Source: an uncultured Acidimicrobiales bacterium (lineage in GTDB: Bacteria; Actinomycetota; Acidimicrobiia; Acidimicrobiales; UBA8190). Taken from it: a stretch of 64,000 nt of DNA. The notes beneath the pieces were generated by a model. That model saw only the letters and a program-made list of their open reading frames with translations, ran no database searches and was not told the DNA's origin. The stretch covers positions 43,221 to 107,220 of the forward strand of contig CAWCEP010000010.1 of assembly GCA_963794615.1 (NCBI GenBank). The letters are read 5' to 3'. Below, one piece after another: positions 42,667-55,901 of this stretch (its first letter is position 1; each line of letters opens with the position of its first letter). Both the position numbers and the translations under genes were made by a program.

Positions 42667-43398
42667 GTGCTGACCCTCACCGTCCTCGGCTGTGACGGCA
42701 GCCATCAGGCCGCGGGCGGGGCCGCCAGCGGCTACCTGGTGCGGTCGTGGGCCTCGGGGACGTCGGTGTGGATGGACGCCGGTCCCGGGACCTTCGCCAA
42801 CCTCCAGCGCTTCACCGATCCGCTCGAGCTCTCGGCCGTGGTGCTCACCCACGAGCACCACGACCACTGCAGCGACGTCGAGGACTTCATCACCGCGGCG
42901 CGCTGGGTGTACCCGTTCGAGCGCGACCCCGTTCCCGTCTACGCCGCGCCCGGGGTGCTCGGGCGTCTGACCCAGGAGGTGGAGGGGATCCTCGATTGGC
43001 ACGAGGTGGGCGACGGTGATGGCGTCGACGTCGGTGATCTGCGCCTGGCCTTCAGCCGCACCGACCACCCGCCCGTCACCCTGGCGACGCGGCTCGAGGG
43101 ACCGTCGGGCGCGCTGGGATACTCTGCGGACTCCGGGCCCGACTGGTCGCTGTCCGCCCTCGGCCCCGGGCTCGACCTCGCCCTGTGCGAGGCCACCTAT
43201 ACCTCCGACCGCAAAGGCCCCCCCATCCACATGAGTGGTGCAGAAGCAGGTTCCAACGCCCGGGGGGCGCGTGCCCGGCGCCTCGTGATCACCCATCGCT
43301 GGCCCACCGCCGACGCGGCCGAGGTCCTGGCCGAGGCCACCGACGCCTTCGGGGGCCGGGTCGAGCAGGCCGCCGTGGGCCGGGGCTACTCGCTGTGA
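42667..43398 (+). CDS. MBL-fold metallo-hydrolase (Rv1339-like position between murI and rph)
   Basis: '[13 protein letters not shown]' metal-binding motif. The GTG start is at 42667. The stop overlaps the rph start (GTGA). Confidence 0.8.
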
Positions 43399-44144
43399 CC
43401 GACCGGCGCGCCTTGCGGGCCGACGGCCGGGACGTGGCCGAGCTGCGCCCGGTGACGTTCGAGCGCGACTTCACCGAGTTCGCCAACGGCTCGGTCCTGG
43501 TGTCGATGGGCAAGACCAAGGTCCTGTGCACGGCGTCGGTCGAGGACCGCGTCCCGCCCTGGTTGCGCGGCGGCGGCAAGGGCTGGGTCACCGCCGAGTA
43601 CTCGCTGCTGCCGGGTTCGTCGGCCGAGCGGGTGGGCCGCGAGGCGGCCAAGGGCAAGCAGTCGGGCCGGACGCATGAGATCCAGCGCCTCATCGGCCGG
43701 TCGCTGCGGGCCGTGACCGACCTCGTCGCCATGGGCGAGCTGTCGGTGACGGTGGACTGCGACGCCTTGCAGGCCGACGGCGGGACGCGCACCGCCTCGA
43801 TCTGCGGCGCCTACGTGGCGTTGCACGACTGCTTCACGCGCCTGGTCCATACACGGGTGCTGTCGTCGCACCCCCTCACCGACGCCTGCGCGGCGGTGTC
43901 GGTGGGCGTCGTCGACGGCGCCTGCCTGTTGGACCTCGACTACTCCGAGGACTCGCGGGCCGAGGTGGACATGAACGTCGTCATGACGGGGTCGGGCCGG
44001 TTCGTGGAGGTCCAGGGCACCGCCGAGGGGATGGCCTTCACCCGCGGCGAGCTCGACGAGCTGGTGGGCCTGGCCGAAAAGGGCATCGGGGTGCTGCTCG
44101 ACGAGCAACGCGCCGTCCTCGCCGAGCCGCCCCCTCCTCGGTGA
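43395..44144 (+). CDS. rph: ribonuclease PH
   Basis: '[43 protein letters not shown]...[16 protein letters not shown]...[15 protein letters not shown]'. Confidence 0.95.
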
Positions 44145-44791
44145 CCACCGGCGGGGGCGACGGCAACGGCGTGGGCGCCACCGGGAGGCTCCGCATGGTG
44201 CTCGCCACCGCCAACCCCGACAAGGCGGCCGAGATCGTGGCGCTCGTGTCCGACACGGTGGGGGACCGGGTCGAGCTCGTGGCCCGGCCCCCGTCGGTCG
44301 GCGAGGTGGAGGAGACCGGCGACACTCTCGAGGACAACGCCCGGCTCAAGGCGGTGGCGCTCGTGAAGGCGACGGGGTTGCCCGCTATCGCCGATGACAC
44401 CGGGCTCGAGGTCGAGGCGCTCGGAGGCGGGCCGGGTGTGCGCTCGTCGCGCTACTCGGGCGAGCACGCCACCTACGACGACAACGTGACCAAGCTCCTC
44501 GCCGAGCTCGACGCGGCCGGCGCCCACGCTCCCGAGGCCCGCCGGGCCCGGTTCCGGACCGTGGCCATGGCCTGCTTCCCGGGCGGGCGCGAGGTGGCGG
44601 CCCACGGTGTGGTGGAGGGGACGATCTCGCCCGAGCGGCGGGGGACGGGCGGCTTCGGCTACGACCCCGTGTTCATCCCCGACGGCGGGGACGGGCGGAC
44701 CTACGCCGAGATGCCGAGCACCGAGAAGAACACTCGCTCGCACCGGGCCCGGGCCTTCCGGGCCCTCGCCATCGGCCTGCTGTCGGGCTGA
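44141..44791 (+). CDS. rdgB: non-canonical purine NTP pyrophosphatase (RdgB/HAM1)
   Basis: '[12 protein letters not shown]', '[22 protein letters not shown]', '[10 protein letters not shown]' and '[10 protein letters not shown]'. Confidence 0.9.
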
Positions 44792-44801
44792 GGGCGCCGG
44801 G

Positions 44802-45689
44802 TCACCGCAGGCGCCACGTCACCCGTTCCCCCGAGGCGAAACGGGCCTGACCCTCCGCCAGGGCGGCGGGGTCGTTGCCGAGGCCCACGAACGCCCACCC
44901 CAGCCCGAGCGCCTGGCTGCGAGACAGCTCGCGCCCCGCCCACAGGGCCCGCAGGGTCCCCTGGACCGCCACCGGATGGGCCTTGGCGATCTCCGCCGCC
45001 GCCCACTGGGCCCGGTCCCGGAGCTCGTCGGCCGGCACCACCTCGGTGACGAGGCCGATCTGGAGGGCCCGCTGGGCGCTCATGCGCTCCGCGCTCCCGA
45101 GCAGGGTGAGCCGGACGAGGTCACCGAAGGGCATGCGATCGGTCATCTGGAGGGGCTCGAAGGCGGCCGCCATGTTGAAGGTGAGATGGGGGTCGAAGAA
45201 GGTGGCGTGGTCGGCCGCGATCATGAAGTCGACCTCGCCCAGCATGTAGAAGGCGCCCCCGCAGGCGATGCCGTTGATCGCCGCGATGACCGGCTTCCAC
45301 AGGTCGTTGGCCTTGGGGCCGAGGTTCTCCCCGGGGTCGTCGAACATGAACGGCGTCGAGCCCGACCCGATGTGCACGGGCTCGTCCTCGGCGGGGCCCG
45401 ACGCGGGGCTGCCCGATCCAGAAGCGCCCGACCCCGGTGCCCCCGACCGTCCCGGTCGGGGCCCGTCGGCCAGCGCCTCGGAGCGGTCGATGCCGGTGCA
45501 GAAGGCCTTGTCCCCGGCCCCGGTCAGGACCACCACCCGGACGTCGTCGTGGCGCCGGAGCCAGCGCCACACGCTGCGCAGCTCGCGCTGCATGGTGGTG
45601 TTGAAGGCGTTCATGACGTCGGGCCGGTTCAGGGTGACCCACGCCACGCCCTCGGACTCCTCGTAGCCGAGCGTCTCGAACTCGGGCAT
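44802..45689 (-). CDS. enoyl-CoA hydratase/isomerase (crotonase) family protein
   Basis: 'VAWVTLNRPDVMNAF', 'VVVLTGAGDKAFCTGID' and 'PVIAAINGIACGGAFYML'. It contains a Gly/Ser/Pro-rich insertion. Confidence 0.85.
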   Translation of the reverse strand: MPEFETLGYEESEGVAWVTLNRPDVMNAFNTTMQRELRSVWRWLRRHDDVRVVVLTGAGDKAFCTGIDRSEALADGPRPGRSGAPGSGASGSGSPASGPAEDEPVHIGSGSTPFMFDDPGENLGPKANDLWKPVIAAINGIACGGAFYMLGEVDFMIAADHATFFDPHLTFNMAAAFEPLQMTDRMPFGDLVRLTLLGSAERMSAQRALQIGLVTEVVPADELRDRAQWAAAEIAKAHPVAVQGTLRALWAGRELSRSQALGLGWAFVGLGNDPAALAEGQARFASGERVTWRLR

Positions 45690-46107
45690 CGCTTCCTCGC
45701 CGTGGTCGTCGGGACCGCCGGAGGCGTCCGGCGTCTCGGGCGGGCCGCGGGCACGGTAGCAGGGGCGAGAAGCGGTGGGCACGCCGGGGCCTGTCCGATC
45801 ACTCTGGGGGCTGCTCGATCGGACAGGCCCGGCGGTCCGTACAGCTCCGGGTGGTGGCCGGGGGCATGTTCGGCACCGGCCCGGTGCTCGCCTCCGACCG
45901 GGAAAAGCAGCGGGCGACGAAGCTCCCGACATCTTGAGCCATGGCCGCTCGCCCCCACTAGGGACCAAAGTCCCTATTGCGCCCCGAGCGGGCGTGGCCC
46001 GCATTGGCGGTGTGGCCTCCATTGGCGGCACAGTGTCACGGCGCCGATGGGGCTCGGCGCCTATGGGGAAGACCGGTCGCACCGGTCACGGCCAGGGGAG
46101 GAGCACG

Positions 46108-46605
46108 ATGTCGGACGACGAGCTGAGCAAGATCATCGGCAAGCCCATGAGCAAGTCCCGGGTCGTCGTCGAACGCGGACCGGTCGCCAACTTCGCCACC
46201 GCCGTGTGCGACGCCAACCCCGTCTATCGCGACCCCCGGGCCGCCGCCGAGGCCGGCTTCGACGCCATCCCGGTGCCGCCGACGTTCCCCTTCGTCATGC
46301 AGACCTGGGGCGAGTTCCCCGAGGCGCAGCCCACCGACAAGCCCAAGGGCAATCCCATGGGCGAGGTCATCGGCCCGCTCATGGCCAAGGGCGGCATCAT
46401 CCTCCACGGCGAGCAGGAGTTCATCTACCACCGGCCCGTGGTGGTGGGGGACGTGCTCGTGGGGGAGGGCCACGTCACCGACGCCTACGCCAAGGAGTCC
46501 AAGGGCACGACCATGACCTTCCTCGTGACCGAGACGGTGTGGCGGGACGAGGCGACGTCGGAGCCCGTGGTCACGTCGCGCTTCAACCTCATCCACCGCG
46601 GCTGA
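46108..46605 (+). CDS. MaoC-family dehydratase, N-terminal-type (HadA-like hotdog subunit)
   Basis: 'VERGPVANFATAVCDANPVYRDPRAAAEAGFDAIPVPPTFPF...ILHGEQEFIYHRPVVVGD'. RBS 'ggggaggag'. Confidence 0.8.
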   Translation: MSDDELSKIIGKPMSKSRVVVERGPVANFATAVCDANPVYRDPRAAAEAGFDAIPVPPTFPFVMQTWGEFPEAQPTDKPKGNPMGEVIGPLMAKGGIILHGEQEFIYHRPVVVGDVLVGEGHVTDAYAKESKGTTMTFLVTETVWRDEATSEPVVTSRFNLIHRG

Positions 46606-46618
46606 CCCGACCCCCGGC

Positions 46619-47069
46619 GTGAAGACGTCTCTGCTCACCGGGGCCGCAGTGGGCGGCGGTCCTGCGCATCGGGCTCGGGCTGTGGTGGCTCGAGAGCTTC
46701 CGGCACAAGAACCTCGAGGCCTGGATCAAGCGCCAGGCGGGGATCAACTGGGCCGCCGACATCGCCGCCAAGCACCGGTGGAAACTCGTCGGCACGGGCT
46801 TCGACGCCGTGGTGAAGCCCCATCCCAAGGCCATGACCTGGGTCATCCTCATGAGCGAGCTGTCGCTCGGGATCGGGCTGACCTTCGGGTTCCTCACCCC
46901 CGTCGCCGCCTTCGCCAGCATCGCCCTCAACCTCTTGTACTTCGTCCTCATGATCCATGACTGGGCGGAGCAAGGGCAGAACGCCATGATGGTCCTGGCC
47001 GCGGCGGTGATCCTGGGGACCCACGGCTGGCAGGTGTGGTCCATCGACCACCTCATCGGTTGGTTCTGA
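46619..47069 (+). pseudogene. DoxX/DoxD-like membrane protein with a frame break just after the start
   Basis: GTG 46619 gives 'MKTSLLTG', then the frame shifts (G-run near 46,641) into 'WAAVLRIGLGLWWLESF...LSLGIGLTFGFLTPVAAFASIALNLLYFVLM...'. The long frame has no start codon before 46806. Confidence 0.5.
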
Positions 47070-47142
47070 CGGACCGCCGGACGCAGCAGCACCGGCAACG
47101 CAGCAACACCGGGCAACACGGACAGCGGACAGGGAGTCGGGC

Positions 47143-49393
47143 ATGCCCATCGGCATCGGGGAGGACCACGAGGAGCTGCGCCGCACCGTGCGGCGCTGGC
47201 TCGAGGCGCGCTGCCCGCCCGCGGTGGCCCGCGCCCTGCTCGACGCCGAGACCGAGACCATGCCGCCGTTCTGGGACGAGTTGGCCGCGCCAGGGTTGGC
47301 TCGGGCATCCACGTGGCCGAGGAGTACGGCGGCCAGGGCTTCGGCATGCTCGAGCTCGCCGTGGTCGTCGAGGAGATGGCCCGGGCCGTGATGCCCGGGC
47401 CGGCCCTGCCCACCATGCTCGGCGCCGCCGTGGTGGCGGCCGGGGCCGACGACCCCCAGCGCAAGGCGCTGCTGCCGGCCATGGTCGACGGCACCGTCCC
47501 CACCGCCGTGGTCCTGCCCGGCGCCGGGACCCTCGACGGCCCGGCGCGCCGGCGACGGCTCGCTCGACGTCGATGGTGCGGTGGGGCCCGTGCTCGGCGC
47601 CACCCTGGCCAGGCGGCTCCTCGCCCCCGTGGCCGTCGAGGGTGGCGGCGTCGAGGGTGGCCGCCGTCGTGTGGTGCGTCATCGACCTCGACGGCGCCGG
47701 GGTCAGCGCCGCTCCGCTCGGCCAGCCTCGACCCGACCCGCCGGGTGGGAACGGTGCGCGTGGAGGGCCTCGTGGTCGAGCCCGAACGCCAGCTGCCGGC
47801 GGTGTCGAGCACCACGGTGCGAGACCTGGCCCTCGTGCTCGCCGCCGCCGAGTGCGCCGGCGGGGCGCGCTGGTGTCTCGACGTCGGGACGGCCTACGCC
47901 ATCGAGCGGCGCCAGTTCGGCCGCCCCATCGGGCAGTTCCAGGCCATCAAGCACCGCCTGGCCGACATGCTGGTGGCGGTCGAGCAGGTCACCGCGCTGG
48001 CGTGGGACACCGCCCAGGCCGCCGACGCCGGCGACGCCGCCCAGGCCCAGCTGTCGGCCGTGCTGGCCGGGGCCTTCGCCCTCGACGCCTCGTCGAGTGC
48101 GCCAAGGGCTGCATCCAGATCCTGGGGGGGATGGGCTTCACCTGGGAGCACGACGCCCACCTGTACCTGCGCCGGGCGCTGTCGCTGCGCCAGCTGGTGG
48201 GCCCGAGCTCGGCGCCTGCGGGTCGAGGCGCACGCGCGCCGCCCTCGACGGCAGCCGGCGCCGGCTCGTGCTGGATCTCCCCGAGGAAGCCGAGCGCATC
48301 CGGGAGCAGGTCCGCGCCGGTGGTGGCCGAGGTGGCCGCCGCGCCCGACCACGACGAGCGACGTCGGCGGCTGGTCGACGCCGGGCTTCTCACCCCGCAC
48401 TGGCCGGTGCCGTGGGGACGGGGTGCGGGCCCGGTCGAGCAGCTCGTGATCGACGAGGAGCTCGCCGCCGCCCGCGTGCACCGGCCCCATCTGGCCGTGG
48501 GCGCGTGGGCGCTGCCCACCATCATCGCCCACGGGACCGCTCGAGCAGCAGGAGCGCTGGGTGGGTCCCACCATGCGGGGCGAGCTCGTGTGGTGCCAGC
48601 TGTTCAGCGAGCCCGGGGCCGGCAGCGACCTCGCCGCCCTGGCGATGCGGGCCACGCGCCACGACGGCGGCTGGGTGCTCAACGGCCAGAAGGTGTGGAC
48701 CTCGATCGCCATGCGCGCCGACTGGGGGATCTGCCTGGCCCGCAGCGACCCCGACGCCGCCAAGCACGAGGGCATCACCTACTTCATCGTCGACATGCAC
48801 ACCGAGGGCATCGAGGTGCGGCCGCTGCGCGAGATCACCGGGGCGGCGATGTTCAACGAGGTGTTCTTCACCGACGTCTTCGTGCCCGACGACTGCGTGG
48901 TGGGGCAGGTCAACGGGGGATGGCGCCTGGCCCGCACCACCCTGGCCAACGAGCGGGTGTCCATGGCCTCGGGGGCCACGTGGGGATTCGGGATCGAGGG
49001 GATCCTCAAGGGCATCCAGGCCGGCTCCGAAGACACCGCGGCTCGAAGACGCCGTCGTCCTCGACGGTGTCGGGAGCCTGCTGGCCGAGGCCCAGTCGCT
49101 GGCGCTGCTCGGCGCCCGGACCACGCTGCGGTCGGTGTCGGGCGTCGAGCCCGGTCCCGAGGCGAGCGTGCGCAAGCTGCTCGGCGCCGAGCACGAGCAA
49201 CGCCTCCAGGAGTTCGGGCTCGTGCAGCTCGGTGCCCGCGAGCGCCACCACCGAGGGCGACGCGGGCCGGTGGAGCCAGGGCTTTCTCTCGGCCCGGTGT
49301 CTGACCATCGCCGGGGGCACGAGCGAGGTGCAGCGCAACGTGATCGGGGAGCGCATCCTGGGCCTGCCCCGCGACCCCGAGCCCGGGAGCTGA
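47143..49393 (+). pseudogene. large two-module acyl-CoA dehydrogenase, reading frame broken at least 10 times
   Basis: ACAD sequence can be followed across all three frames. Examples: 'FWDELAAPG/WLG/IHVAEEYGGQGFGMLELAVVVEEM', '...RQFGRPIGQFQAIKHRLADM...', 'VECAKGCIQILGGMGFTWEHDAHLYLRRA', '...GELVWCQLFSEPGAGSDLAAL...GWVLNGQKVWTS...', '...LTIAGGTSEVQRNVIGERILGLPRD'. Switches lie near 47.29, 47.30, 47.54, 47.66, 47.72, 48.10, 48.20, 48.32, 48.54, 49.04 and 49.25 kb, mostly at G/C runs. Confidence 0.8.
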
Positions 49394-49487
49394 GCGTCAC
49401 CGGGGTGTGAGCACAGGAACGGTTTTGACACGGTGACGGACACCGACGCCCAAGCTGCGGCGACCGGGCGAGAAGGGACGGAGGGAC

Positions 49488-49920
49488 ATGGCTGAGGCCA
49501 CGCGGTACTACGAGGACGTCAAAGAGGGCGACGAGGCGCCGGCCGTCGAGCCACACCCTGACCCGGACCGATCTGGTGCGCTATGCCGGCGCCTCGGGGG
49601 ACTACAACCCCATGCACCACGACGAGATCCTCGCCACCGCGGCCGGCCAGCCCAGCGTGTTCGGCCACGGGATGTTCTCCATGGGCCTGCTCGGCACGGC
49701 CCTCACCGACTACGTCGGGCCCGGCAACCTCACCCACTACAAGGTGCGCTTCTCCCGCCAGACCTGGCCCGGGGAGGAGCTCACCACCAAGATCGTGGTG
49801 ACGGGCAAGCGCGTCGAGGACGGCCGCAACCTGGTCGACCTCGAGTGCAGCCTCGCCAACGGCGACGGCGAGGTGAAGGTCGTGGGCGAGGCCACGGCGG
49901 TGCTGCCCAGCAAGGCCTGA
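49488..49920 (+). pseudogene. MaoC-like (R)-hydratase hotdog subunit (HadB-like) with one frame break
   Basis: 'MAEATRYYEDVKEGDEAPAVE' in one frame, then 'HTLTRTDLVRYAGASGDYNPMHHDEILATAAGQPSVFGHGMFSMG...' in the next. The switch is near nt 49,551. Confidence 0.7.
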
Positions 49921-50014
49921 GGCGGCGCCCCCGGGGGCGCTCGCTCAGGACCTGGTGCTGGGTTCGAAATGGACCGGACTCGCGGCCCGACCCGGGGCCG
50001 GCGCCGCGTGTGAC

Positions 50015-50600
50015 TCAGCAGCCCGGCGGGCTCCCGGTCTTGCCTTCGGCCGAGTAGAAGAGCCCGAGCAGCGTGCAGATCGTCATCTTGGCCACGAGCC
50101 AGTGGCCGTCGGTGAACACGGCGTAGCCGTTGTTGTTGGGCAGGATGGCCGTTCCCCCCGTGCCGAGGATGTCGTAGACGACCTTGGCGCACTGCGACCG
50201 GCAGGTGCTGCGCGGTGCACTGGCTCGCGGTCAGGATGCTGACGCTGTCGATCTTCGACCCTTGCGACGCGCTCGCCTCGGACGACGACAGCGCCTGCTG
50301 CATCGCGGCGGTGATCGACTGCCCGTCCTGGATGACGGCCACCTTGCTGGCCAGGTCCGGGTTCGCGAGGTTGAACAGCGTGTTGTAGGTGGTGGCGATG
50401 TCGGCCTGGGCCGTGGTGGGGTCGATGGCGACGGTGGTGGTGGTCGCCTTGGTGGTGGTCGTCGCCGAGGGGGTGCTGCTGCAAGCGGCCGCACCGAGGG
50501 TGAGCCCGGCCATGACGGCGACCGCTATGACACGCGGTGTGCGGCGTCGGCCGCGGTGCCTCGTGCCGTCCGCCGTGGTGGTGCTGAGTAGTCCGAGCAT
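50015..50600 (-). pseudogene. lipoprotein with one frame break
   Basis: '...AVMAGLTLGAAACSSTPS...AVIQDGQSITAAMQQAL...SILTASQCTAQHLPV', then a frame switch near nt 50,190-50,200 into 'CAKVVYDILGTGGTAILPNNNGYAVFTDGHWLVAKMTICTLLGLFYSAEGKTGSPPGC*'. Confidence 0.6.
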
Positions 50601-50769
50601 GGTGTGGGCCTCCCCTTGAATCGGTGCGCCGCTTCCCCTTGGGCTGCCAGAGGTTAACCGGATCCCCGGCGCCGTACCTGACATTCTCGTCAGGGACGTG
50701 CCGATCCGCTGCCGGGGGCCCTCCGGCCCCGAGCCGACCGCCCCGGAAGGTCGGAGGAGGCGGAGCGGA

Positions 50770-51675
50770 TCAGAAGGTGAAGGGAGGCAGGCCCGAGGCC
50801 GCGGGTGGCGAAGAGCGTCGCCTTGTTGTCGGCCAGCTCCTTCGGTGTCCACCCCGTGTCCCGCTTGAGCTGGCCGGCCGGCTGCCACCCCTGCATGACC
50901 CAGACCGACCCGCCGTACACGACGAAGTTCTGCCCGTTCACGTCGGCGGCCTCGTCCGAGGCCAGGAACACCACCAGCGGGGCCACGTTCTCGGGGGCGA
51001 AGGCGTCGAACTTGCCCTCCTCGGCCTTGGCCATGTCGCCGAAGAGGTCCTCGGTCATGCGGGTGCGGGCCCGCGGCGAGATGGCGTTGACGGTCACGCC
51101 GTAGCGCTCCAGCTCGCGGCCCGAGGATGATGGTCATGGCCGCGATGCCGGCCTTGGCGGCGCCGTAGTTGGCCTGCCCGGCGTTGCCGAAGAGCCCGGC
51201 CTCCGACGCCGTGTTGATGATGCGGCCCGAGACGTCCTCGCCCGCCTTGGCGCGGTTGCGCCAGTGGACCGCGGCGAAGTGCGACAGTGGCGAAGTGGCC
51301 CTTCAGGTGGACGCGGATGACGTCGTCCCAGTCGGACTCGTCCATGTTGAAGCTCATCTTGTCCCGAAGGATGCCGGCGTTGTTGACGAGGATGTCGAGC
51401 TTGCCCCAGGCGTCCACCGCCTGGGCCACCAGCGCCTCGGCCCCGGCCCACGAGCTCACGTCGCAGCTGTTGAGCAGGGCTTCGCCTCCGGCCGACTTGA
51501 TGTCCTGCACGGTCTGCTCGGCGGGGTGCACGTCGCTGCCTTCGCCCGCACGCGAGGCGCCGACGTCGTTCACGATGACCTTGGCACCTTCGGCCGCCAG
51601 CAGGAGGGCCTCGGCGCGCCCGATCCCTCGTCCGGCGCCGCTGACGATGGCGGTCTTTCCCTCGAGCATGCCCAT
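50770..51675 (-). pseudogene. SDR-family oxidoreductase with about three frame breaks
   Basis: 'MGMLEGKTAIVSGAGRGIG...ILVNNAGILRD...VHLKGHFAT/SHFAAVHWRNRAKAGEDVSGRIINTASEAGLFGNAGQANYGAAKAGIAAMTIILG/RELERYGVTVNAISPRA.../LPPFTF*'. Switches lie near 51,285, 51,120 and 50,793. Confidence 0.7.
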
Positions 51676-51874
51676 CAGGTGTCCTCCTGCTTCTGCTTCA
51701 CAGCCTCGGGCCCGACGCCCGCCGCCGGGTCCTGCGCCACGTTGACGTCGGATCTGGAACCCGGGCAGCATGGCCGATGGTGCGAGCCAGGGTCAACATG
51801 GCCGCACGCCCGGAAGCGGCCCCTGCCGGGACCGGCGACGACGACATTCCTGAGCGTGAACGAGGCAGAAACCC

Positions 51875-52286
51875 ATGGCGAGGACCCGGTTCGATCTCCC
51901 CACCCCCGACGATTTCACCCAGGCGTGGTGGGACGCGGTCGGCGAGGGCCGTCTCCTGCTCATGCGCTGCTCCACCTGCGGCCGAGGCGCACTACTACCC
52001 CCGGCCCTTCTGCCCCCGTTGCGGCGCCGACACGGTGTCGTGGGAGGAGGCGAGCGGTGACGCCACGCTCTACACGTGGTCGGTCGTGTACCAGAACGAC
52101 CTTCCGCCCTTCAACGAGCGGGTGCCCTACGTGGCCGCGGTGGTCGACCTGGCCGAGGGCCCCCGGATGATGACCAACGTCGTCGGGTGCGAGATCGACG
52201 ACCTCGCCGTGGGCATGGCGCTGCGCGTGGAGTTCACCGACATCGGCGACGGGTACCACGTGCCCATGTTCCGTCCCGCGGCGTAG
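51875..52286 (+). pseudogene. DUF35-type Zn-ribbon/OB-fold protein with one frame break
   Basis: 'MARTRFDLPTPDDFTQAWWDAVGEGRLLLMRCSTCGR', then a frame switch near 51,985 into 'HYYPRPFCPRCGADTVSWEEASGDATLYTWSVVYQ...RVEF'. Confidence 0.7.
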
Positions 52287-52297
52287 CGGACCCGGCG

Positions 52298-53053
52298 ATG
52301 CAGCGTTCGGGGGGCAGGGTCGCGCTGGTCACCGGGGGGAGCCGGGGGATCGGCCGGGCGTGCGCCTTGGCCCTGGCCGGCGACGGCTTCGACGTGGCCG
52401 TCAACTACCGGCGCGACGCCGAGGCGGCCGCCGACACGGTGGCGGCCATCGAGGCGCTGGGCGCTTGCGCCAAGAGCTACCCGGCCTCGGTCGAGTCCGC
52501 GGCCGAGGACCAGTCCATGGTGGAGGCGGTGCTCGAGGACTTCGGCGCCATCGACGCCCTCGTGCACTCGGCGGGCATCGCCAGCCGCGGCCACACCGTG
52601 GCCGAGACCGACCCGGCCGAGCTCGAGCGCGTCGTGGCCGTCCACGCCTTCGGGGCGCACCACCTGTGCCGGCTCGCGCTCCCGTCGATGCGGACGCGGC
52701 CGCGCGGCGACGTCGTCTTCGTCTCGAGCGTCGCAGCCCGGATGCTCGCCCCCAACAGCGCCCCGTACAACATGGGCAAGGCCGCGCTCGAGGCCCTGGC
52801 CGTGACCCTCGCCAAGGAGGAGCGCCGTCATGGGATCCACGTGAACGTGGTCGCCCCCGGCCTTGTCGTCACCGAGATGGGTCGTCGCCTGGTCCGAGCC
52901 ATGGGGGTCGAAGACATCGCCACTATGGACGCCGGCGCCGCCTTCGGGCGGGTGTGTCGGCCCGAAGACGTGGCCGGCGTCGTGCGGTTCCTGTGCTCGG
53001 ACGAGGCCGGCTACGTGACCGGCCAGGTGATAGCGGTGGACGGGGGAGGCTGA
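52298..53053 (+). CDS. SDR-family oxidoreductase (FabG-like), intact
   Basis: 'ALVTGGSRGIGRA', 'HSAGI' and 'YNMGKAALE'. Confidence 0.85.
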   Translation: MQRSGGRVALVTGGSRGIGRACALALAGDGFDVAVNYRRDAEAAADTVAAIEALGACAKSYPASVESAAEDQSMVEAVLEDFGAIDALVHSAGIASRGHTVAETDPAELERVVAVHAFGAHHLCRLALPSMRTRPRGDVVFVSSVAARMLAPNSAPYNMGKAALEALAVTLAKEERRHGIHVNVVAPGLVVTEMGRRLVRAMGVEDIATMDAGAAFGRVCRPEDVAGVVRFLCSDEAGYVTGQVIAVDGGG

Positions 53054-53151
53054 CGCTCCGAACTCGGCCCTCGAGCCCATCGATCGGGCGCTCTGCACGA
53101 CTTCTTGACAATCAGCGGGCGCGGCCGAGGATAGCCCCGGGGCCGACGTGC

Positions 53152-53685
53152 TCAGCCCGCCAGGCGCGCCAGCGTCGTCACGGTCTTGAGGGTGCGTGTG
53201 GTCGCGGTCACGCCCAAGCGACGCTCGATGAAGGCGTTGTTGATCTTGGTGGTGCCATAGCCCCGGGGGCAGTGCACGAAGACCTCGCTGCGAACCACCC
53301 GGAACTCGTCGGGGAGGAAGGCCTCGGTGTCGAGGGGCGTGACGCGCGAGGACGGCGGTCGAGAAGCCAAGAAGGTCACGTGCAGCTTGGCGGGGTCGCG
53401 CCCCCCACCGGCGAGGGGGTTGCCATCGATGACGTCGGCGAGCTGGGCGCCGGTGCGCAGGACGACGTTGATGCCGAGGCCGAACCGGGCCTCGAGCCCT
53501 TGTTCGATGACCGAACGAAGGTGGGCGGCCGACCCCGACGCGCTGAACACCACGTTGCCGCTCTGGATGTAGGTGCGGGCGTCGTCGAAGCCCATGGCGA
53601 CGAAGCTGTCGCGCAGCTCCGGCATGGACACCTTGTTGTGGCCACCGACGTTGATCCCCCTCAGCATCGCTGCGTACGCCGTCAC
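53152..53685 (-). CDS. DUF1697-family protein
   Basis: 'YAAMLRGINVGGHNKVSMPELRDSF...ARTYIQSGNVVF' is the characteristic DUF1697 N-terminus. The GTG start is at 53685. Confidence 0.75.
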   Translation of the reverse strand: MTAYAAMLRGINVGGHNKVSMPELRDSFVAMGFDDARTYIQSGNVVFSASGSAAHLRSVIEQGLEARFGLGINVVLRTGAQLADVIDGNPLAGGGRDPAKLHVTFLASRPPSSRVTPLDTEAFLPDEFRVVRSEVFVHCPRGYGTTKINNAFIERRLGVTATTRTLKTVTTLARLAG

Positions 53686-53695
53686 GGCGGGCTCA

Positions 53696-54265
53696 TCACG
53701 GCCTTCGTCCCGTGAAGTCCAACAACCGCTGTTGCAGGGGGGCGTTCTCGGCGACGTCCCCGCTCGGGCCCGTCCCGAACACGCCGATCTGACCGATGAA
53801 CGGGGCCATGGGCTGCATGGCGTTCCAGGTGGTGACGACCAGGTCGGGGTCCAGTCGTTCGTCACCGCCGGTGGACCGGGCCACGTCCCAACTGTGGAGG
53901 AGATAGTCCCCGGTCCGGAATCCGAACAGGGTCGCCCCCGGGACGTCACCGGCGGCGGGGTGATGCACGGTCGTCTCGAACGCGTCGGGCGCCCCGAAGG
54001 CGGCGAGCTCGTCGGCCATCGCCGCGTCGAGCTCGGCCGGGAGGTCCGTTCCGTGCTCGACACCGAACGCCGAGCGGCTCTCGTCTGCTGATGCCCCGCC
54101 GAGCAATAGGACCGTCATGTGGCTTCCCTCGATCAGGTGCACCACCAGGTCTGTGACGGTCCAGCCCGCGCACGGCGTCACGAGGTCCCACTGCCCGGGG
54201 GCGATGGCCGCCACCCGGCGCCGGATCTCGGTCTGCGACGTGGCGAGATCGGTTACGTCGGCCAC
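53696..54265 (-). CDS. DinB-fold / maleylpyruvate-isomerase N-terminal-like (TIGR03086-type) protein
   Basis: 'PCAGWTVTDLVVHLIEG' and 'DYLLHSWDVARSTG'. RBS 'aaaggagac' upstream of the GTG at 54265. Confidence 0.7.
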   Translation of the reverse strand: MADVTDLATSQTEIRRRVAAIAPGQWDLVTPCAGWTVTDLVVHLIEGSHMTVLLLGGASADESRSAFGVEHGTDLPAELDAAMADELAAFGAPDAFETTVHHPAAGDVPGATLFGFRTGDYLLHSWDVARSTGGDERLDPDLVVTTWNAMQPMAPFIGQIGVFGTGPSGDVAENAPLQQRLLDFTGRRP

Positions 54266-54302
54266 GGTGTCTCCTTTCGGTCGGGTGAGCCCAGGGGTGG
54301 GG

Positions 54303-55901
54303 TCACCGCATCTCCACGTCCTCGAGGTATTCCTCGCGCCACAATTCGTAGCGCTCCTCGGGCAGGTGCAGCGCATGGGTCGGACGCAGGGCGTCGACGA
54401 AGGGCCGGTCGTGGCTCACGGCCACGACCGTGCCGGGCCAGGTGCTGAGCATCGCACCGACGGCCTCGACCGACGCCGGGTCCAGGTTGTTGGTGGGCTC
54501 GTCCAGCACCAGGAGGTTGGCGCGGCCCGCCGACAGCATGGCCAAGCTGAGCTTGGCCCGCTCTCCCCCCGAGAGCGACGCCGGCAGCTGCTCGGCCGTG
54601 GCGCCGGTGAGCCCGAACGAGCCCAGGAGCGCCCGGCGCTCGGACACCGTCCGCAGCACGGTGTCGTCGATCTGCTCCAACGCACAGAGGGCGGGGTCGA
54701 GTTGTTCGTGCTCCTGCGCGAAGTAGCCCAGCGAGACGTTGTGCCCGACCTCCACCGCGCCCTGGGTCGGTTCCTGGACCGCGGCCAGGCACCGGAGCAG
54801 GCTGCTCTTGCCCGCCCCGTTCCGGCCGATCACCACCACCCGGTCACCGCGCCCCACCACGAAGTCGATGTTGAGGAGCACCTTCTTCGCACCGTAGGAG
54901 ACCTGGACGCCCTGGACGGCCAGGGGCAAGGCACCCGAGCGTGCCGGCGTGGGGAGGCGGAACCGTGTCTTGCGGTCCCGCTTCACGAGTTCGGTGCGGT
55001 TGCCTTTCATGCGCTCGACCCGGCGATCGAGCACTTTGGCCTTGCGGGCCCGGTCCTCGGTGCTGGCCCGCATGGAGTCGGCCAGGGTGCTGAGCTTGCG
55101 GATCTGGCGGTCTTCGAGCGACCGTCGCTTCTCGCGCTGCTCGATGTCGGCCATGAGCTGGTGGCGGTAGGAGGTGTAGTTCCCCTTGAACTCCCGCAGT
55201 CCTCCTTCGGCCAGGCTCAGCACCTTGGTGATGACCTTGTCGAGCAGCTTCAGGTCGTGGCTGATGACGAGCATGGCCCCGGCGAAGCGCGACAGCTCGG
55301 CCGTGAGCCACCGCTTGGCGGCGAGGTCGAGATGGTTGGTCGGCTCGTCGAGCACGAGCGTGTCGGGCCGCCCGAACAGGACCCGGACGATGTCGACGCG
55401 CCGGCGCTGTCCACCCGACAGGGAGTCGATGTCGTCGAACAACGTTTCCTGGCGCAGTCCGATCCCCTCGGCCAGGCGGGCGATGTCGGCCTCGAGGTTG
55501 TACCCGCCGGCGGCGCCATAGCGCTCTTCGAGGTCGGTGAAGCGGGTGATGGCCTCGGTGGTGGGATCGGCCGCCACCGCCCGGCGAGCGGTGTGCATCT
55601 CCTCGTCGAGGACGTCGAGGCCCCGGGCGGAGAGCACGTGGGAGAAGCCGGTGGGCTCGAGCCCGAGACCGCCTGCGGTCGGCACCTGGGGCAAGAAGCC
55701 GATGGTCCCCTGGATATCCACGTCCCCCGCCACCCGCAGATGCGGGGGGACCTGGCGGCAGATGACCGAGACCAGCGACGACTTGCCGGTCCCGTTCCGG
55801 CCCACCAGGCCCACCTTGTCTTCGGGCCCGACCATGAACGACGCCTCGCGCAGCAACGTCCTCCCACCGATCTCGATGGTGACGTCGCGGCCCGTGATCA
55901 T
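54303..55901 (-). CDS. ABC-F family ATPase (two ABC cassettes, no TM domain)
   Basis: Walker A 'GRNGTGKSS' and 'GRNGAGKSS'. Signatures 'LSGGQRRR' and 'LSGGERAK'. Walker B 'LVLDEPTNHLD' and 'LVLDEPTNNLD'. Confidence 0.9.
   Translation of the reverse strand: MITGRDVTIEIGGRTLLREASFMVGPEDKVGLVGRNGTGKSSLVSVICRQVPPHLRVAGDVDIQGTIGFLPQVPTAGGLGLEPTGFSHVLSARGLDVLDEEMHTARRAVAADPTTEAITRFTDLEERYGAAGGYNLEADIARLAEGIGLRQETLFDDIDSLSGGQRRRVDIVRVLFGRPDTLVLDEPTNHLDLAAKRWLTAELSRFAGAMLVISHDLKLLDKVITKVLSLAEGGLREFKGNYTSYRHQLMADIEQREKRRSLEDRQIRKLSTLADSMRASTEDRARKAKVLDRRVERMKGNRTELVKRDRKTRFRLPTPARSGALPLAVQGVQVSYGAKKVLLNIDFVVGRGDRVVVIGRNGAGKSSLLRCLAAVQEPTQGAVEVGHNVSLGYFAQEHEQLDPALCALEQIDDTVLRTVSERRALLGSFGLTGATAEQLPASLSGGERAKLSLAMLSAGRANLLVLDEPTNNLDPASVEAVGAMLSTWPGTVVAVSHDRPFVDALRPTHALHLPEERYELWREEYLEDVEMR

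Follow-up and report, generated by a model that had tools for sequence, protein, structure and literature searches.

A block of frame-broken genes between intact flanks

Six consecutive genes at 46.6-52.3 kb of the window, the whole 64-kb stretch of DNA analysed here, have interrupted reading frames in the assembly (Table 1). They encode a small membrane protein, a two-module acyl-CoA dehydrogenase, a MaoC-like hydratase, a putative lipoprotein, a short-chain dehydrogenase/reductase (SDR) and a DUF35-type protein. Codon-by-codon comparison with the intact orthologues of the related genome G011 reveals 19 frame-breaking indels in the six genes (1, 12, 1, 1, 3 and 1 in gene order), and the same comparison finds none in the eight flanking genes. 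An earlier reading of the letters and open reading frames (the sequence-only reading) had claimed just such a block of six broken genes between clean flanks, with break counts per gene nearly identical to ours. It had also described protein that stays family-like across the breaks, with no in-frame stops; when the frame is followed through the six genes, no stop codon is encountered and the amino-acid identity to G011 is 88-98%. Its 'DoxX-like' label for the first gene finds no Pfam match at E<=1e-4 in 46619-47069 and is not supported. The open frames at 47.0-52.3 kb give partial Pfam matches, split over several frames. The fourth label of the left flank, a hot-dog dehydratase, corresponds to a Pfam match to FAS1_DH_region. 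The other left-flank genes we take, from labels without a Pfam check, to be RNase PH, ITPase and an enoyl-CoA hydratase; those of the right flank, labelled in the same way, are presumably a second SDR-like gene, two small proteins and an ABC-F-like ATPase.

Table 1. Features of the frame-broken block and its flanks (positions in the window; +1, inserted base relative to G011)
Feature	Position	Strand	Details
Left flank, four genes	43395..46605	.	Zero frame-breaking indels
Zone of assembly-private 1-nt indels	45951..51985	.	21 events vs all three relatives, 19 insertions + 2 deletions
Small membrane protein ('DoxX-like', without Pfam confirmation)	46619..47069	+	+1 at 46647; G011 orthologue intact, 149 aa
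Finely interleaved mosaic of A and B alleles	47138..51956	.	41/128 informative sites = B, in 23 runs of 1-5 sites
Two-module acyl-CoA dehydrogenase	47143..49393	+	12 indels; 760 aa in G011
Acyl-CoA dehydrogenase, domain order	47143..49393	+	Acyl-CoA_dh_N/1, then N/M/1 (Pfam)
Acyl-CoA dehydrogenase, +1 sites (n=10)	47289, 47303, 47534, 47661, 47722, 48214, 48231, 48319, 48539, 49240	+	vs G011
Acyl-CoA dehydrogenase, losses	48091; 49042-49045	+	-1 at 48091; -2 at 49042-49045; vs G011
MaoC-like hydratase	49488..49920	+	+1 at 49543; 143 aa in G011
Putative lipoprotein, without Pfam family	50015..50528	-	+1 at 50200; 170 aa in G011
Short-chain dehydrogenase/reductase (SDR)	50770..51675	-	+1 at 50801, 51118, 51288; 301 aa in G011
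Additional insertion just upstream of the DUF35-type gene	51807-51814		+1
DUF35-type protein, ChsH2-like zinc ribbon + OB fold	51875..52286	+	+1 at 51985; 136 aa in G011
Right flank, four genes	52298..55901	.	Zero frame-breaking indels

The available relatives belong to the MFD series of soil Acidimicrobiales MAGs. Assemblies of this series rely on Nanopore reads alone and were built with metaFlye, followed by a single Medaka round (PMC12313526). Three of them, G008:C4 (95% identity), G011 and G003, were used to call private indels, and all six genes are intact in each. Bin G008 contains two congeneric lineages, on contigs C4 and C3. We considered the C3 copy as a local duplication and rejected this, since it is syntenic across the whole window at 80-85% identity and represents a second lineage in the bin. 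Below, A denotes the lineage of the assembly itself, which G008:C4 and G011 resemble, and B the other lineage, like G003 and G008:C3.

Comparison with intact orthologues and sister genomes, which the sequence-only reading had recommended, shows 21 single-base indels to be private to this assembly. Elsewhere in 37-64 kb, comparison with the same three relatives gives a few shared indels, which sit at gene boundaries. A frame tracker that needs no reference yields 8 candidates in the window, all of them at 47297-51287, a density ~13x the genome mean. G008:C4 has a separate storm of +1 insertions at 59-64 kb of the window, a region in which this assembly has the same length as G011. We found no second copy or alternative contig of the 47-52 kb segment in this bin, and exact-protein matching of two intact flanking proteins yielded no independent assembly of the same strain.

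The six genes carry no signs of relaxed selection in the form of nonsense codons, a raised non-synonymous share or a preponderance of deletions (19 insertions to 2 deletions among the private indels). Synonymous and non-synonymous substitutions number 221:88 in the six genes and 278:109 in the flanks, an unchanged ratio, and no larger deletions are present in the interval.

Inserted bases and the alleles of another lineage

At 18/18 testable +1 sites the relatives 'prefer' deleting different bases. Simulated insertions in the flanks produce this both-allele outcome in 95/302 cases when placed at random and in 111/300 when of homopolymer type (31-37%). With G011 left out, the result is 14/14, against 32-34% for insertions simulated within the same interval. 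Since the relatives prefer deleting different bases, such an insertion coincides with a substitution between lineages and contributes the other lineage's allele. Judging from the sequence comparison, the extra base is the allele of another lineage at that position at all testable sites.

The substitutions in the interval show a related pattern, in which A and B alleles are finely interleaved. B alleles occupy 32% of the A/B-informative sites in 47-52 kb (41/128) versus 6% in the flanks (32/531; Fisher P=7e-14). Departures from the assembly's own lineage match other-lineage alleles in 86/97 cases in the storm, compared with ~40% in the flanks. Substitutions private to the assembly are scarcer in the storm, at 3.9/kb versus 9.5-12.5/kb in the flanks. 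With fewer private substitutions and departures that are mostly other-lineage alleles, the storm is not random noise.

Other storms in the genome

The sequence-only reading saw a storm of breaks confined to one block, which holds within the 64-kb window but not genome-wide. The tracker yields 684 strongly clustered frame-switch candidates in the genome, and there are at least 16 storms, each with 7-16 candidates within 3-6 kb; examples lie at C6:549-555 kb and C9:234-240 kb. Two further storms were compared with the relatives: the first contains 32 private indels (27 insertions, 5 deletions) and the second 53 (46 insertions, 7 deletions). Both display the same split-gap pattern and the shift towards other-lineage alleles, the mosaic test being noisier there, where G011 is a poorer sister. 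One of the two cuts the only MurJ gene (single-copy by local tblastn of the genome) into 6 pieces over 3 frames, and TrxB and DegV are also split; storms are thus not limited to dispensable genes. We found no clear relation between storm edges and stretches of high A-B lineage similarity of the kind expected from a collapse threshold. As the storms are not obviously bounded by A-B similarity, the limitation of merging to this segment is a point against the explanation set out below, and so is the lack of a second copy or alternative contig of the segment in the bin.

Origin of the frame breaks

That the six genes are intact in the organism is almost certain, and the frame breaks are very probably not biological. 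We consider it highly likely that they arose as a consensus artefact when strains were collapsed in a long-read metagenome assembly, and from its contig statistics and its relatives we infer that this assembly belongs to the same Nanopore/metaFlye/Medaka series as the latter. Two related haplotypes in the sample would cover the ~5.5 kb segment, one of the assembly's own lineage A and the other with alleles characteristic of the more distant, congeneric lineage B. The assembler would have kept a single path, while consensus or polishing drew on reads from both haplotypes. At substitutions between the haplotypes, the reads of one haplotype may have been represented as a deletion and an adjacent insertion; a consensus retaining both bases would gain +1 base, and elsewhere it would switch from one allele to the other. 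The software step held responsible for the insertions is presumed. The outcome would be a mosaic with about 20 extra bases, which shatter six otherwise intact genes. The part of the sequence-only reading that saw an assembly or consensus artefact in one stretch agrees with this explanation, under which its warning that the annotation of the block is unreliable also stands. Its aside on 'a patch from another read type or strain' comes close to the data as regards the strain, given the both-allele signature and the A/B mosaic.

Ordinary long-read indel noise, that is, random or homopolymer-length errors from one haplotype in a poorly polished or low-coverage patch, is an unlikely source of the breaks. 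Such noise would agree with the abundance of frame-switch candidates across the assembly, with the highest densities on short contigs; with the assembly being 87.5% complete with only 17 contigs; and with the relatives being Nanopore-only assemblies. The position of the breaks in or next to G/C runs, from which homopolymer errors due to poor polishing or low coverage had been read, turns out to be no more frequent than chance. Counted with the inserted base, the run measures 1 nt at 10 sites, 2 nt at 6 and 3 nt at 1, which does not differ from background. No homopolymer preference of the inserted bases was found, and the runs of 7 and 6 nt, the longest in the interval, carry no indel. Private substitutions fall rather than rise in the storm, every testable insertion lies on an inter-lineage substitution at a frequency far from the simulated null, and foreign alleles that are real are enriched 5-fold. 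Nanopore consensus errors lean towards deletions, whereas insertions outnumber deletions by 19:2 here.

The mosaic itself might be real, resulting from patchy recombination import from another lineage, with only the +1 bases erroneous and derived from piled-up reads of a co-occurring non-recombinant strain. The size of this storm (~5.5 kb) and of the others (3-6 kb) is plausible for recombination tracts, the foreign alleles are real ones found in relatives, and two congeneric lineages do co-occur, both being present in bin G008. We nevertheless regard a real mosaic as highly improbable, since B alleles in 23 separate runs, each of 1-5 sites, within 5 kb demand dozens of switch points in one genome. 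It would still require two haplotypes in the reads, which makes it a sub-case of strain collapse rather than a genuine rival to it.

In the alternative offered by the sequence-only reading, slippage would have inactivated a lipid-catabolic cluster in the organism very recently, through many independent events. Such genuine pseudogenisation would suit six genes that share one functional neighbourhood between intact flanking genes, in an accessory-like cluster whose loss would be tolerable, but it is the least probable of these origins and is contradicted by 19 frame-breaking indels that come with neither a nonsense codon nor a larger deletion and with the substitution ratio unchanged, by the insertion bias, by inserted bases that each supply the other lineage's allele where testable (which no mutational process predicts), by identical storms that shatter the single-copy MurJ, TrxB and DegV genes, and by the intact state of all six genes in three relatives.

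Consequences

With strain collapse as the preferred explanation, we advise regarding the cluster as intact and basing no claim of gene loss or of lipid-catabolic decay on 46.6-52.3 kb. With ~700 frame-switch candidates or more concentrated in a few dozen patches, gene calls, completeness estimates and pseudogene counts are unreliable in those places, a matter of relevance to users of this genome and of sister long-read MAGs. The signature consists of a +1 bias, an extra base that equals the other lineage's allele, and a local allele mosaic. As it can be recognised from sequence alone given a few relatives, it could serve to flag patches for re-polishing or phasing.

It is conceivable, if rather doubtful, that the storms mark 3-6 kb tracts where co-existing strains differ sharply because one of them acquired the tract from a congeneric species through homologous recombination. 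In that case, recent inter-species recombination tracts that segregate in natural populations could be mapped without recourse to reads, by means of both-allele +1 storms in Nanopore-only MAGs.

Comparison with known systems

MaoC and hot-dog hydratases, ChsH2-type DUF35 proteins, SDRs and acyl-CoA dehydrogenases form the domain set of steroid and lipid side-chain beta-oxidation clusters in Actinomycetota, which include ChsE-type acyl-CoA dehydrogenases, ChsH MaoC hydratases and DUF35/Ltp2 partners. The underlying intact genes at this locus resemble such clusters in comprising MaoC and hot-dog hydratases, a ChsH2-type zinc-ribbon/OB protein (DUF35), SDRs and an acyl-CoA dehydrogenase. They differ in that the dehydrogenase is a single 760-aa two-module fusion and not a two-subunit enzyme, and in that the block has no thiolase or Ltp gene.

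Homopolymer indel errors in Nanopore assemblies produce frameshifted genes and lower the completeness of Nanopore-only MAGs (Sereika et al. 2022, PMC9262707). This storm has both effects in common with those errors. Unlike them, the breaks described here lie outside homopolymers, are biased towards insertion and track inter-lineage substitutions.

In long-read metagenome assembly, strain variation is suppressed in favour of a consensus, and metaFlye contigs interleave collapsed unitigs with resolved ones (Strainy preprint, 10.1101/2023.01.31.526521). Such interleaving of strain-collapsed unitigs matches the patchy distribution of storms in this assembly, whose metaFlye origin is presumed. The Strainy work treats collapse as lost strain information, and both-allele +1 insertions are not described there.

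A further parallel comes from haplotype-collapsed long-read assemblies, in which nearby allelic variants cause wrong read alignments, leading to INDEL errors and apparent frameshifts in a mosaic consensus, and in which genes become full-length after haplotype separation (Cosentino et al. 2021, PMC8445201). As in that case, the breaks at our locus fall on variant sites inside a mosaic consensus. That case concerns a diploid eukaryote sequenced with PacBio, with about 4 variants per kb across the genome, whereas ours is a prokaryotic soil-community MAG with a second haplotype that is roughly 10% divergent and an effect confined to 3-6 kb patches.

Frame breaks and coding signal in the six-gene interval

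The window covers C10:43221-107220 of the assembly under study (G000; 4.32 Mb in 17 contigs, ~69% G+C, 87.5% complete). At such a G+C content each of the six frames has long open stretches, so ORF lists by themselves tell little. In the open frames at 47.0-52.3 kb, Pfam matches are fragmentary and distributed across frames (acyl-CoA dehydrogenase N, M and C domains; MaoC; short-chain dehydrogenase; ChsH2-type zinc ribbon and OB fold), which indicates that the genes are truly interrupted in the G000 sequence. Five of the six gene labels are backed by Pfam; the 'DoxX-like' protein has no Pfam match, and 'small membrane protein' is the best name for it.

We projected three related genomes onto the window: G008 (contig C4, 93-95% identity), G011 (C42, about 91%) and G003 (C26, 83-86%), according to their named records all MAGs of uncultured soil Acidimicrobiales. 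All six genes are intact in G011, against which G000 was read codon by codon to list the frame breaks (see table). The counts match those of the sequence-only reading almost exactly, and its intact flanks and absence of in-frame stops are likewise borne out: once the frame is followed, none of the six genes contains a stop. Indels private to G000, seen against all three relatives, are concentrated at 45951-51985 (n=21; 19 insertions and 2 deletions); the few others at 37-64 kb lie at gene boundaries. The proteins of the six genes are 88-98% identical to those of G011, no different from the flanks, and synonymous to non-synonymous changes number 221:88 in this cluster of indels ("storm") vs 278:109 outside. 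True pseudogenisation of the six-gene cluster, which the sequence-only reading had offered as its alternative, is very unlikely: pseudogenes would not be expected to show nineteen independent frame-destroying mutations yet no other trace of relaxed selection, nor insertions in a 19:2 majority over deletions.

The interval also carries repeats. A tandem repeat in the spacer that separates the membrane-protein gene from the dehydrogenase gene (units like ACGCAGCAGCACCGGCA) differs in copy number among the relatives. Two short repeat-bearing stretches within the dehydrogenase gene, whose length differences include an 'EDTAV'-like repeat in G011, are suggestive of natural variation in the length of surface or linker segments, with artefactual indels on top.

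Features of the window and of related loci (window positions unless a contig is named)
Feature	Coordinates	Strand	Observation
Small membrane protein	46619-47069		frame-breaking indels: 1
Two-module acyl-CoA dehydrogenase (760 aa)	47143-49393		frame-breaking indels: 12 (ten +1, one -1, one -2)
MaoC	49488-49920		frame-breaking indels: 1
Lipoprotein	50015-50528	-	frame-breaking indels: 1
SDR	50770-51675	-	frame-breaking indels: 3
DUF35 protein	51875-52286		frame-breaking indels: 1
Eight flanking genes	43395-46605 and 52298-55901		frame-breaking indels: 0
Insertion site	47288		G008/G011 GCCGC-CCAGG; G003 GCCG-GCCAGG; G000 GCCGCGCCAGG
Insertion site	51286		G008/G011 GACAG-CGCG; G003 GAC-GTGGCG; G000 GACAGTGGCG
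Intergenic tandem repeat	47080-47120		G000 +17 nt vs G008:C4, +32 nt vs G003
Dehydrogenase repeat stretches	47654-47671 and 49026-49045		13-21 nt length difference among relatives
Storm, G000	C9:230-244 kb		32 private 1-nt indels (27 insertions, 5 deletions)
Storm, G000	C6:545-559 kb		53 private 1-nt indels (46 insertions, 7 deletions)
Largest validated storm, G000 (the C6 storm above)	C6:549000-555200
+1 storm of G008:C4	59-64 kb		about 67 single bases more than the window
Smaller +1 storms of G008:C4	41-44 kb
Window-region copies, G008	C3:36000-75999 and C4:293000-365000

Insertions that hold both alleles

Where G000 has an inserted base, a substitution separates the relatives and G000 shows their two alleles one after the other; in other places it passes between the lineages' local sequences with one base in excess. 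Of the 18 +1 sites that allow the test, all 18 have relatives that prefer different bases for removal, vs 95 of 302 random and 111 of 300 homopolymer-type insertions simulated in the clean flanks. With G011 left out, the pattern holds at 14 of 14 sites, vs 32-34% for insertions simulated in the same interval of G011's clean sequence. No mutational process yields insertions that fall on lineage-variable sites and are filled with the other allele; a consensus of two haplotypes does.

The substitutions show the same mixture. Informative sites were those at which lineage A, G000's own (G008:C4 = G011), differs from the more distant congeneric lineage B (G003 = G008:C3). The B allele is found in G000 at 41 of 128 such sites at 47-52 kb, compared with 32 of 531 flanking sites (P=7e-14). 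These B alleles form 23 runs of 1-5 sites, from 47138 to 51956, interspersed with A alleles and insertions; the interval begins and ends abruptly. Departures from lineage A in the storm are alleles of other lineages in 86 of 97 cases (about 40% in the flanks). The simplest reading of the mosaic is site-by-site toggling between two real haplotypes.

Homopolymer-length or low-coverage noise is not the cause of the breaks, because run lengths at the inserted bases (themselves counted: 1 at ten sites, 2 at six, 3 at one) are spread as in the background, and random error should add private substitutions, whereas the storm has fewer (3.9/kb vs 9.5 and 12.5/kb in the flanks). Runs of 7 and 6 nt, the longest in the interval, are untouched. 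Thus the artefact proposed in the sequence-only reading stands and its homopolymer mechanism does not: the storm is very probably not biological and most likely arises from merged haplotypes.

From the both-allele signature we infer two read populations and a software step. Two haplotypes, roughly 10% apart over a ~5.5 kb tract, would have been collapsed to a single path. During consensus or polishing, an inter-haplotype substitution would be rendered in some reads as a deletion with an adjacent insertion; calling both the base column and the insertion column would give both alleles and one extra base, while at the remaining variant sites the call would merely toggle between alleles. That the storms mark recombination tracts differing between co-existing strains is conceivable, though rather doubtful.

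Storms elsewhere in the assembly

A reference-free frame tracker (codon-usage Viterbi, six frames plus non-coding) flagged 684 points across G000 at which the frame switches on the same strand with no stop close by, a rough figure, as 8 of 19 breaks were recovered in the window storm and some singletons will be false. Candidates are heavily clustered: 61% of 6-kb bins hold none, and at least 16 clusters hold 7-16 within 3-6 kb. The window storm, with 8 candidates, is among such clusters, and the rest of the window, its accessory region at 663-26173 included, has none. Both additional storms compared with the relatives, on contigs C9 and C6, are real; they show the split-gap pattern of the window and drift to other-lineage alleles, with more noise. 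The C6 storm crosses the genes for thioredoxin reductase (TrxB), DegV and the lipid II flippase MurJ. By local tblastn, MurJ has one locus only in G000, in six pieces and three frames, and TrxB and DegV are as fragmented. Loss of these genes by a free-living bacterium is very unlikely. Annotation pipelines would label these housekeeping genes pseudogenes. The storms are a property of the assembly and not of the window locus.

The short contigs C3, C13 and C14 (20-40 kb) have the highest frame-switch density (6-8 per 10 kb vs 1.6 genome-wide) and may consist mostly of sequence that is strain-collapsed or of low depth. G008:C4 has +1 storms of its own; in the larger of these regions G011 and G000 are nearly free of length differences.

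Provenance of the genomes

G003 is a short-read MAG. The other two relatives, G011 and G008, come from the 'MFD...bin' series, for which metaFlye assembly of Nanopore reads alone was followed by a single Medaka round (PMC12313526). G000 is probably the same kind of assembly as its MFD relatives, with which its contig sizes and completeness are compatible. An exact look-up with two intact flanking proteins found no second independent assembly of its strain. The G008 bin (MFD00964.bin.2.170) contains A-type and B-type copies of the entire window region, so one sample does hold both lineages, and they are hard to separate; this suggests that two congeneric populations were combined in the bin, although its estimated contamination is only 3%. 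The copies are syntenic, lie on contigs of 1.47 Mb and 0.55 Mb, and are each about 80-85% identical to the lineage of the other.

Beyond its use as a recognisable flag of quality in long-read MAGs, the storm is of low interest. Strain-collapsed and strain-resolved segments alternate in metaFlye contigs (10.1101/2023.01.31.526521), and in collapsed long-read assemblies close allelic variants lead to misalignment, INDEL errors and truncated ORFs (PMC8445201).
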